A DNA stretch of 64,000 nucleotides from Eledone cirrhosa. Taxonomy: Eukaryota. Below the pieces are notes generated by a model. It worked only from the letters and a program-made list of their open reading frames with translations. It searched no databases and was not told the DNA's origin. The translations under genes were made by a program, and so were the position numbers. The stretch is taken from assembly GCA_964016885.1 (NCBI GenBank), contig OZ024740.1, positions 86,180,001-86,244,000 of the forward strand. The letters are read 5' to 3'. Shown here piece after piece: positions 27,004-59,946 of this stretch. Each line of letters starts with the position of its first letter. Position 1 is the first letter of the stretch.

Positions 27004-27601
27004 TATTGATATACTTTGGGAGGGTCATGTTGCCAATAAGAAACACACGCACCAGTTGCTTTCACTTCAGTTTATTATATATTTATAAATTTATAAATTT
27101 ACAAATCTACAAACTTATAAATTTCTGGTTGGTTGGTTGGTTCCACAACCTGATAGTTGTTTATATATAGTCATAGTCCTTTCGTCACACACTCTGTGAC
27201 CTCTTCAGTGACTGGGGATTCCTTTCTTTGTTTCTGTGGCTTTCCTTTCTTCTGTCCTACGCCATTTTCCACACAGAAACAAAATGGCGTAGGACAGAAG
27301 AAAGGAAAGGCACAGAAACAAAGAAAGGAATCCCCAGTCACTGAAGAGGTCACAGAGTGTGTGACGAAAGGACTATGACTATATATAAACAACTATCTGG
27401 TTGTGGAACCAAGCAACCAACCAGAAATTTATAAGTTTGTAGATTTGTAAATTTATAAATTTATAAATATATAATAAATTGAAGTGAAAACAACTGGTGC
27501 GCGTGTTTCTTATTGGCAACATGACCCTCCCAAAGTATAACAATATCGGTTTCAACACACGATTTCAGATAAAGAATCTTGCTAAACAAATTCAGAAACG
27601 A
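27004..27601. mobile_element. Family A fold-back (non-autonomous derivative of the PLE at 29369-34136)
   Basis: About 260 bp inverted arms centred near 27275, plus a tail of about 55 nt on the right. Confidence 0.9.
27336..27380 (+). ncRNA. Minimal hammerhead ribozyme (antisense copy 27169-27213)
   Basis: Stem I agtca/tgact, CTGAAGA plus extra G, stem II gtcaca/tgtgac, GAAA-ggac-TA. Confidence 0.75.
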
Positions 27602-27673
27602 TATATATATATATATATATATATATATATATATAGTAATAATAATTAATATATATATATATTTATATATATA

Positions 27674-27860
27674 TAGGAAACTGTTTGACCCCGATGGCAG
27701 AGCTCAAGCCGTTTTGACGACGACCAGAAATAGCCGTCGAAACGGCTTGAGCTCTGCCGTCGGGGTCAAACATTTTCCTATTACCCACTCTACTACCCTA
27801 AGTATTGAGTACTCTGGTACGTTATGGTCCATCTGGTTCCTTACCACACCTCCTTCGTTA
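27674..27860. mobile_element. Family B fold-back
   Basis: Palindrome gaccccgatggcagagctcaagccg / cggcttgagctctgccgtcggggtc plus a tail of about 80 nt. Confidence 0.8.
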
Positions 27861-29368
27861 TATATATATATATATATATATATATATATATATATATATA
27901 TATATATATATATATATATATATATATATATATGTATGTATACATATATATATACGTCAACTAAATTACTTCCTCCTTCCTTTATATACATAGATTCAGC
28001 TGGTATTTTACATTCCTCATGTATGTGTAGGTTCAGATAACATTCTACACAGACATACACACATACATAGCAGACCCTTACTCACAACACGTCCTCCATA
28101 TGCTCAAAATACATACAAACACACACTCACGTACAACATTGCTACATACAGTCTCACACCCATTCAGCTAAAACTCTTCACCTATCCTTAAGATTAAGTT
28201 GATATTTTGCGCTCATCATATATACATACATGCAGCTAATATGCTGCACTTATCCTTTATAAATATAGCAGCCATACAATGAATTCTAAAGAATCTTATG
28301 TTGTAATTTTCTTGTCGACATAACTTAATTTATCTTCAAAGCAGCAGGTTTCTCTGATGTGGTATAGTGTGGAGTGGTATCGTGCATTTTGTGGGCTGCA
28401 GTGGTCAGTGTATATTGAATAGGTTCGCTCTATGTATGAAAATTGTACTATGTATGAAGAGTGCTCATATATGTTCGTGTATGTGTACATATAGTATGTG
28501 GCGTGTATGTGTGTGTGTGATGTGTGTCTTTGTTATATATTTGTGAGCGTAATTGAATTTGTGTGTGTATATGCACTGCGGTAATGTATATATGCATGTT
28601 TTACTGTAAGTGTATATGTTGATTCCATATAGATTAATACAGGAATGTATAAGCATAATAGACGCACATACATACACACAAACACAAACACACACATATA
28701 TATATACACATATAATGATACAAGTGGTGTCTATATGCGTATACGAAAATGATTTTATATATATATACATATATATATATATATGGATGGATGGATGGAT
28801 GTGTGCAGGTGAATGTGCTGAAATGTCGGTTCTGTGAGAGAAACCATAGCGTTTCATTGTAACTCCTTGATGATGCAAGGGATAGCTATTCATGCCGGTC
28901 AGTTGACTTTATCTTGTAAGTGTATGCTTGAGGGAATATTGTAACATGTGGTTGGAAAGAGAGGGATGAGTAGAGGATAAAGGTAGCAGATGAGTTGGGG
29001 AAGAAGGAAGGAGGGAAACGATGGCAATGAAAGAAGCTGGATGGGGGTAATGTGCGGTTGGATTACATGAAATCAGGAAATCGTAGTAGTTTAAGTGTTT
29101 GAGAGAAGTTAAGTAGGCATGTGTGTTTATATATAAATAGCTACAACACAGGTATGTACGAGTATATAAAAATATATATATACATATATATACATATAAA
29201 CATGCATATATATATATATATATATATATATATATATATATATATATATATATATATATATATATATATATATATATATATATATATATATATATATATG
29301 TATATATATATATATATATATATATATATATATATATATATATATATATATATATGTATATATATATA

Positions 29369-58880: not shown

Positions 58881-58892
58881 TATATATATATA

Positions 58893-59525
58893 AAGTTTAT
58901 CCCGGGTTCAATCGGGGGGTAACCACAGTAAGTAAGGTACTCAATACATAGCAGAGTATAAATATTTAATATAGAAAGGGTTCTACAGGACTAGAACTGT
59001 TTCATTTGGTAGAAATCATCAGCAAGCAGCTGCCCGAATAATATGGTGGTATTTATATTTTTTCTGGTGGTGATTGGGATGGGTGGAGGTCATTGGTTGA
59101 TGGGTTTTAAGAAAAGGGAATTCTTTAAAAACTATATTTACAATAACGAAGGCAGAAAGGATTCTATAAACAGGGTCACTCTGTGGTGCCACTCCTTATG
59201 TTTAAGGTTCACTTAAGCTAACAATGGATTTGGTCAGGTGTCTACAAGCTACCACCAGAAAAAACTATAAATACCACCATATTACTCGGACAGCTGGTTC
59301 CTGATTATTTCTACCGAATGAAATAGTTCTACTCCTGTAGAAGCCTTTCTATATTAAATATATATATATAAATATATGTATACATACATACATACATACA
59401 TATACATATAAATATTTTTTTTTAGTATAGAAGAGCTTCTACAGGACTAGAACTGTTTCATTCGGTGGTATGATTGAGTACCTTACTTACTGTGGTTACC
59501 TCCGATTCAACCCGGAATAACTTAT
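58893..59525. mobile_element. Family G fold-back (58893-59361) and a second rearranged copy (59425-59525)
   Basis: Inverted arms about 58960-59071 and 59251-59361, tail on the left. Confidence 0.8.
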
Positions 59526-59536
59526 ATATATATATA

Positions 59537-59946
59537 TATTGTTATACTTTGGGAGGGTCATGTTGCCAATAGGAAACACACGCACCAGTTGCTTTCACTT
59601 CAATTTATTATATATTTATAAATTTATAAATTTATAAATTTACAAATCTACAAACTTATAAATTATAAATTTCTGGTTGGTTGGTTGGTTCCACAACCAG
59701 ATAGTTGTTTATATATAAACAACTATCTGGTTGTGGAACCAACCAACCAACCAGAAATTTATAATTTATAAGTTTGTAGATTTGTAAATTTATAAATTTA
59801 TAAATTTATAAATATATAATAAATTGAAGTGAAAGCAACTGGTGCGTGTGTTTCCTATTGGCAACATGACCCTCCCAAAGTATAACAATATCGGTTTCAA
59901 CACACGATTTCAGATAAAGAATCTTGCTAAACAAATTCAGAAACGA
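59537..59946. mobile_element. Family A palindrome with no spacer, plus tail
   Basis: Centre gtttatatataaac 59707-59720. Confidence 0.9.

Follow-up and report, generated by a model that had tools for sequence, protein, structure and literature searches.

Inverted arms with two defined ends in short Penelope-like insertions of the octopod Eledone cirrhosa

Overview of the locus

A 64,000-nucleotide stretch of Eledone cirrhosa DNA (assembly GCA_964016885.1, contig OZ024740.1, positions 86,180,001 to 86,244,000, forward strand; hereafter, the window, numbered from its first letter) contained short insertions in (TA)n tracts, in which two copies of one sequence were arranged as inverted arms: one arm ended at a short site (S), and the other continued as a one-sided tail to a second site (L). 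The inverted arms listed by hand covered 4815 of the 64000 bases (7.5%). The insertions were assigned to Penelope-like elements (PLEs), namely, the coding family A and PLE2, and to the families B, C, E, F, and G. The best account of their structure is probably that reverse transcription was initiated twice, at S and at L, and that the two cDNAs were joined head to head. This anatomy is that of ordinary, already described PLEs at the short end of their size range, and the mechanistic gain from comparing how far the two arms reach is modest.

Ends and centers of family A

Family A was present in three copies: A1 (27004-27601), A2 (29369-34136), and A3 (59537-59946). The initial annotation had reported three occurrences with the same ends and different fold points, and this was confirmed by an alignment of the six arms. 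All three left arms ended at S (...acaat followed by (AT)n), in which the motif quoted previously was generally conserved, with the exception of one substitution in the left arm of A1. All three right arms continued beyond S (34080-34136 in A2) to L (...cagaaacga followed by (TA)n); the tail, estimated previously at about 55 nt, was 57 nt in every copy, and differed by 0-1 substitution among them. The center was a 12-nt spacer in A1 (27269-27280) and ~3.2 kb, including the open reading frame (ORF), in A2, while A3 had no spacer, its arms overlapping by the 8-nt TATATATA at 59713/59714.

Differences between the arms of one copy amounted to 7 substitutions in 264 nt (A1), 3 substitutions and 2 gaps in 754 nt (A2), and none in 176 nt (A3), and the E-values of the arm pairs in self-BLAST were 0.0, 0.0, and 1.7e-143. 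No gap event was found within any of the three copies in an AT-rich array of the arms, and 1-2 were found between copies. Since the arms of one copy share a private indel pattern, both originated from one template or were homogenized. Parts of 27004-27601 were detected in at least 20 rows (14 studies) of public sequencing runs, with no RNA run among the rows listed, and this was uninformative on palindromes and expression; three of these rows matched half or more of the sampled words from the interval. Collections of metagenomes, viruses, and prokaryotes contained 0 loci with the exact motifs of family A or B.

Coding content and classification

The minus strand of 29370-33320 encoded, in this order, a decayed reverse transcriptase (RT), a CX4CxxC linker, and an endonuclease of the GIY-YIG type; this ORF was interrupted by stops and a frameshift. 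When full-length relatives were used as tblastn queries, identity was 33-43% over ~660-690 residues covering both the RT and the endonuclease, while the Pfam match to RVT_1 was only 6.9e-4 (below the cut-off). PLE2 matched both RVT_1 (5.8e-12) and GIY-YIG (2.9e-5). In family A and PLE2 alike, the RT and the C-terminal GIY-YIG domain were on one ORF. The CCHH motif, which belongs to the definition of endonuclease-containing (EN+) PLEs (PMC8557442), was present in the family A endonuclease (2 Cys and 2 His in the translation), and a CX2-5CxxC linker before the endonuclease is described as the mark of Neptune and Nematis PLEs (PMC8557442). Family A is classified here, from its linker motif, as a PLE putatively of the Neptune/Nematis type.

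The 27-residue translation that begins at the ATG (34056) and ends with the tail could be aligned to a profile of 19 homologous PLE N-termini (residues 1-24), and S and L are, therefore, located after codons 8 and 27, respectively, in the ORF of the next tandem unit. As the tail belonged to the first 27 residues of the RT-GIY-YIG ORF, the insertions were 5'-truncated Penelope-like elements. Together with the recurring S and L, this bore out the earlier proposal of Penelope-like retrotransposition products with two differently defined ends. The two best protein matches to the N-terminal region of family A were from Octopus sinensis (52%) and Octopus vulgaris (40%); a protein search with the N-terminal 200 amino acids, at similar lengths, gave 0 of 107 candidates. 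A pseudo-long terminal repeat (pLTR), an inverted 5'-truncated copy, and a one-sided tail were observed in both family A and PLE2, and the tail was identified as the ORF start for family A only.

An Asn/Thr-rich low-complexity stretch preceded the RT in the family A ORF (32250-32730), and recalls the N-rich inserts of rotifer PLEs, which are at other positions there (PMC3846280). A third decayed PLE was found on the minus strand (44200-46469), with a short inverted S-ended arm on its 5' side (46336-46469); no pLTR copy was found at its 3' end.

Table 1. Coordinates of the Penelope-like and related insertions in the window
Feature	Position	Strand	Description
A1 inverted arm	27005-27268	-	Ends at S (arm alignment, arm-reach comparison)
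A1 direct arm	27270-27601	+	Hammerhead core 27341; 57-nt tail to L
A2 long arm	29370-33320	-	5'-truncated decayed PLE ORF and 3' region, with a hammerhead (core 29565); ends at S (29370)
A2 short arm	33328-34136	+	GIY-YIG coding end, 3' region, hammerhead core 33884, ATG 34056, tail to L
Family A ORF start	34056-34136	+	27 codons; S after codon 8, remainder is the tail
A3	59537-59946	.	Perfect palindrome with its fold at TATATATA; S on the left and tail on the right; hammerhead absent
PLE2, whole	34563-36494	.	Minus-strand long arm (L at 34563, tail ~40 nt) and S arm
PLE2 ORF	35143-36273	-	Truncated RT-GIY-YIG ORF in the long arm
PLE2 S arm	36251-36494		244 nt, identical to its counterpart
B1	424-1227	.	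Long L arm (tail at 424); 29-nt S arm (1199-1227); U3-A8 hammerhead-like fold
B2	4808-5094	-	S-ended single arm
B3	26716-26873	.	S arm reaches ~43 nt further than L arm
B4	27673-27858	.	Near-symmetric; S left, tail right
B5	34165-34292	.	L arm; possible 12-nt S stub on the left, weak
B6	34339-34533	.	Near-symmetric; tail left, S right
C1	58893-59366	.	Long L arm left, 116-nt S arm right
C2	59406-59520	.	Inverted S arm and tail-only L arm, non-overlapping
C3	4515-4705	.	Near-symmetric; tail left; hammerhead core 4644
E1 and E2	9905-10693	-	Partial tandem, period ~526 nt; L-ended
E3	43534-43684	-	Single arm ending at S, flanked by (TA)n tracts; hammerhead core 43665
E4	56930-57343	.	Tail ~115 nt left, S right; 1-nt center; hammerhead core 57207
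E5	58208-58877	.	Palindrome around a natural hairpin of 6 bp; S on the right; left arm stops ~100 nt before S; tail absent
F	1-372		Palindrome carrying two type-I hammerheads, both well-formed (cores 80 and 184); extended far on the right, up to (TA)n; window edge cuts off the left end
G	60508-61065	.	Partial tandem (period 321 nt) and inverted arm joined at a 9-nt natural inverted repeat; core 60945

Reach of the two arms among families

Families B, C, E, F, and G were defined anew from self-BLAST and alignments, as B, D, and G had been given previously without coordinates (Table 1). Tail lengths were ~40 (PLE2), 57 (A), ~64 (C), ~77 (B), and ~115 nt (E). The rule proposed in the initial annotation, of a precise short arm and a one-sided tail, held for B, C, E, and PLE2, but not for E5, G (both ends near S, no one-sided tail), or 53252-53360, a symmetric palindrome of ~100 bp in (TA)n with no tail and with a CUGAUGA remnant at one end.

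Each of thirteen insertions (A1-A3, B1, B3-B6, C1-C3, E4, and PLE2) combined a single S arm with a single L arm. Not counted among them were E5, which lacks an L end; G, a partial tandem with S close to both ends; 53252-53360, which is symmetric and tail-less; 46336-46469, an S arm in front of an ORF, for which no far end was found; F, truncated by the window edge; and the insertions with one arm only, which ended at S in B2 and E3 and at L in C4 and E1/E2. For B1, 830-1199 was assumed to be part of the copy.

Six of the thirteen were near-symmetric, with offsets of -11 (A1), 0 (A3), -11 (B4), -10 (B6), ~-5 (C3), and ~-1 (E4), a minus sign indicating that the L arm reaches further upstream (values for C3 and E4 were refined by eye). 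The L arm was much longer in four (B1, B5, C1, and PLE2), and the S arm was longer in three: A2 (by ~3.2 kb), B3 (by 43 nt), and C2, the arms of which do not overlap. The long S arm of A2 started ~13-19 codons past the tail end; a start exactly at the tail end was ruled out by these missing codons. The L arm of C2 started a few bases after S.

In all five families, S lay on a TA-alternating overlap with the target (A 4, B 3, C 4, E 5, and PLE2 4 nt, by eye), the chance of which was 0.07-0.16 per family, with a product of ~2e-5. The S end of 46336-46469 likewise had a 3-nt TA overlap. Another TATA, located 8 nt upstream of S in family A, was used in none of the three copies. The control for the palindrome scan was crude: three shuffles gave 7, 0, and 1 raw hits, which were uninspected.

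Very short S-end stubs of family B were also observed at 59962-60037 and 60502-60511, followed by (CA)n or abutting family G, and several families had commonly inserted, one within another, in shared (TA)n tracts across the window.

Hammerhead ribozymes

In the window, a descriptor for type-I hammerheads detected 11 cores (four in A, two each in E and F, one each in C and G, and an unassigned one at 4192), compared with 0-1 per sequence when 20 block shuffles were scanned. A strict scan detected family F only. Cleavage at the A2 core 33884 was predicted after 33918, and the family A hammerhead was ~140 nt upstream of the ATG. The elements had been described previously as hammerhead elements; A3, which folds downstream of the ribozyme site, holds none. 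PLE2 had only a weak U4C variant with a 3-bp stem I, missed by the type-I descriptor. Family B had the topology of a hammerhead with a U3-A8 core, a variant described in PMC4209133, and its folding energy (z -1.4) was not significant. Among the best 150 of 305 Rfam matches for the entire window, there was no hammerhead family, and none was found for two short segments (families A and G) either; many Rfam matches to miRNA were obtained, all below gathering scores.

The idea that the folds mark the ribozyme cut was also considered: the arms of A3 start 4 nt, and the L arm of B3 2 nt, past the predicted cut, and two of ~25 arm starts are within chance. Upstream of the family A hammerhead (33775-33835), there were motifs resembling the consensus sequences of ETS, NRF1, and YY1 sites. 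The center of A1 lies ~11 nt ahead of the motif similar to YY1 and may, therefore, represent a transcription start.

Non-coding families

Families B, C, E, F, and G shared with PLEs only the S/L ends, the (TA)n target, and hammerheads, and are probably non-coding dependents of Penelope-like retrotransposons. Families E and G may be retrozyme-like non-coding units. Non-LTR retrozymes are non-coding tandems with type-I hammerheads, proposed to depend on PLEs (PMC7229834; bioRxiv 10.64898/2026.07.22.740005), and E and G fit this description in part: they contained 1.3-1.5 units with one junction each, and, relative to the reported unit of 170-400 nt, G (321 nt) was inside and E (~526 nt) outside the range.

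Mechanism of formation

Two primings, at S and at L, appear to be the more probable origin of these insertions, as judged from their ends and centers. The two nicked ends of a (TA)n target would serve as primers, one at L and the other at S, usually with a single read-through RNA as template, and priming at S would be helped by the TA overlap of 3-5 nt. Each cDNA would stop on stalling or at the 5' end of the RNA, and the two would then be joined through short self-complementary stretches; equal stopping points would give a palindrome, and with unequal ones, a spacer would separate the inverted repeats. Some of the junctions may be finished by one cDNA copying back on itself. The insertions that distinguished this scheme from the folding back of a single cDNA were A2, B3, and C2: since the second arm of a fold-back product lies within the first, an S arm with extra upstream sequence, combined with a tailed L arm, needs two primings. 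The S-only insertions point the same way. The arm starts of A2 and C2 would be the pattern expected of two RTs on one tandem RNA, the downstream one stopping near the start of the upstream one, as in twin priming of L1 elements. In the latter, the second target strand primes internally by microhomology and gives an inverted 5' part with non-overlapping arms. The internal site of L1 is variable and its arms are not duplicated, whereas the site was fixed, and the arms mostly duplicated, in the present insertions.

Several observations weigh against two primings. In all six near-symmetric copies, the L arm was never the shorter, as the fold-back of an L-primed cDNA predicts. E5, which has a natural 6-bp hairpin at its center and a left arm ending at no defined site and without a TA flank, is best read as copy-back. 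The overlap between S and (TA)n is equally expected if the second target end anneals to the copied-back strand, and, at a self-complementary stretch, the junction would be identical whether two cDNAs of the same sequence annealed or a single one folded back. Initiation at RNA sites non-homologous to the cut DNA has been reported (PMC11167929). No link to a PLE ORF was found in the arms of B, C, E, F, and G (eight query proteins, translation). Target-site duplications were unreadable for family A and PLE2 because both ends lie in (TA)n. The sample consisted of 13 insertions from a single window, the arm limits of B1 and B5 are uncertain, and A2 could represent two separate events.

Fold-back self-priming as the main route, which we regard as possible but doubtful, states that an L-primed cDNA runs to the 5' end of the RNA, folds at a small hairpin, and copies itself; the S end would be fixed by the second target end or by the endonuclease, and twin priming would be a minority route. 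The six near-symmetric insertions, with an L arm equal to or 1-11 nt longer than the S arm, and the four with a much longer L arm are consistent with this, as are the self-complementary junctions (TATATATA in A3, 6-nt repeats in B6 and E5, and 9 nt in G). Junction palindromes have been read as self-priming in PMC3846280, and the tail has been ascribed to resolution by the endonuclease in PMC8557442. On the other hand, this route is unable to make A2, B3, C2, or S-only arms, leaves unexplained the base-precise stop at S (the TATA 8 nt upstream remaining unused in family A), and would require a primer loop for which the 1-nt center of E4 is too tight. Therefore, self-priming of cDNA, proposed in the initial annotation as the source of the hairpins, fails for 3 of the 13 insertions and for E3, is possible for the six near-symmetric ones, and fits E5 best.

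The same annotation had regarded the short palindromes as a class of non-coding retro-MITEs (MITE, miniature inverted-repeat transposable element). Such self-copying non-autonomous families, either as retro-MITEs or as DNA MITEs with a TA target duplication, are very unlikely. The insertions are indeed non-coding, TA-flanked, and made of inverted arms, E1 and E5 have a center sequence in common, and the tandem units of E and G with type-I hammerheads resemble non-LTR retrozymes (PMC7229834). However, centers and lengths varied among copies of A (3/3), B, and C, and between E4 and E5, the inverted repeat is non-terminal, with an unpaired tail of 40-115 nt at one end, and the arms of family A are the end of a coding PLE. 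The shared center of E1 and E5 is equally explained by the tandem unit of E. Since the centers differ within families, the palindromes were rebuilt at each insertion and do not constitute a self-copying class, and this part of the earlier proposal is not supported. An artefact of assembly or library (fold-back chimeras or missing-adapter long reads) is hardly credible: A3 and PLE2 have 100% identical arms, but most arm pairs diverged (7/264, 10/116, 6/50, and 5/150), the same S and L ends recurred at unrelated loci, and one-sided tails encoding the ORF start are not a product of chimeras.

Comparison with known systems

Arkhipova et al. 2013 (PMC3846280) described pLTRs in inverted orientation, a one-sided tail prolonging the ORF start, and junction palindromes, which they explained by self-priming. 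The same scheme, with (TA)n targeting and non-autonomous PLEs, was given by Craig et al. 2021 (PMC8557442), who call the inverted structures mechanistically undefined. The inverted repeats of Penelope in D. virilis are variable in size (PMC2377424), new PLE insertions have a median of 128 bp owing to 5' truncation (PMC9977147), and paired hammerheads of Schistosoma mansoni, located on opposite strands at a distance of 100-700 bp, have been interpreted as truncated PLEs (Cervera and De la Pena 2014, PMC4209133). Thus, published work already covers the inversion of one arm, the tail on one side, palindromes at the junctions, pairs of hammerheads on opposite strands, and the idea of self-priming. 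No twin-priming account or MITE-mimic account was found in the literature searched, most subscription papers being outside the search.

Canonical EN+ PLEs (Pen2a_Av and others) resemble the present elements in the ORF with an RT plus a GIY-YIG at its C-terminal end, the inverted 5'-truncated copy at the 5' end, the one-sided tail continuing the start of the ORF, junctions with palindromes, insertion into microsatellites, and an N-rich stretch in the ORF. Their tails are, however, 30-40 nt (PMC3846280, PMC8557442), compared with 40-115 nt here, most insertions here are only 100-700 bp, and the position of the family A hammerhead, ~140 nt upstream of the ATG, is a further difference. These papers favor self-priming or resolution by the endonuclease, while the junctions tabulated here point to two primings.

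For one PLE protein, a dimer is predicted; in vitro, it nicks both strands of the target, extends them, and initiates reverse transcription at two internal RNA sites that bound the tail (PMC11167929). In this protein, Poseidon_Ac (PAc) from Anolis (Frangieh et al. 2024, PMC11167929), the two RT starts are in the ORF start, as are S and L, and an AT-rich target and the pLTR hammerhead are further likenesses to the window elements, as nicking and extension of both strands would be. Poseidon_Ac belongs to another clade (family A has the CX2-5CxxC linker), inverted arms are not addressed in the available parts of that report, and the same parts describe no homology between the cut DNA and the RNA start, whereas S overlapped (TA)n by 3-5 nt here.

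The dual hammerheads of Schistosoma mansoni correspond to the signature of A1, C3, F, and G, and their U3-A8 core to that of family B; ends and centers are not tabulated in the available text (PMC4209133).

Stowaway-type MITEs are short and non-coding, with inverted arms and a TA target. The window insertions differ from MITEs in having no fixed internal sequence, a non-terminal repeat, and an RT origin. The initial annotation stated that annotation tools would call them DNA transposons; they may plausibly be taken for TA-flanked MITEs, because TA flanks the palindromic part on both sides.

Implications

Which arm reaches further, and what sits at S, provide a genomic test separating twin priming from fold-back. 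It was applied here to 13 insertions from five families, and may be scaled to any TA-rich mollusc genome. Such stumps can be mistaken for MITEs or for miRNA hairpins. If transcribed, the insertions would form tight double-stranded RNA (dsRNA), of interest in cephalopods; an exceptional dsRNA content and A-to-I hyper-editing have been reported for octopus (PMC5625713). As a speculative extension, which we consider rather improbable, twin initiation, in which a PLE dimer starts at two fixed sites on the RNA and TA microhomology guides the second start, would be the general source of the inverted ends of PLEs, would also act on hammerhead-bearing non-coding retrozyme RNAs, and would fill the introns and intergenic DNA of octopods with short, near-perfect hairpins as a main substrate for the dsRNA and hyper-editing.

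Other features of the window

An inverted duplication of 394 bp (13493-13886 and 16499-16891; 98.7%) surrounded a TA-rich repeat of ~2.6 kb, with neither hammerhead nor tail, and could be a microsatellite-centered palindrome or an assembly artefact. An open frame of 1208 codons, apparently intact, was located at 37342-40968, and we presume, from its motifs, that it is a long interspersed nuclear element (LINE) of the RTE type (endonuclease, RT, and C-terminal zinc fingers). The start of the ORF of another non-LTR element (62866-64000), with no Pfam match, ran off the end of the window. A decayed Gypsy-type LTR element (48030-52628) had 202-bp LTRs (48030-48231 and 52427-52628) with 98% identity, and a diverged repeat family resembling short interspersed nuclear elements was present in several copies (10729-12009, 21503-24163, and 52819-52887) with 70-90% identity.

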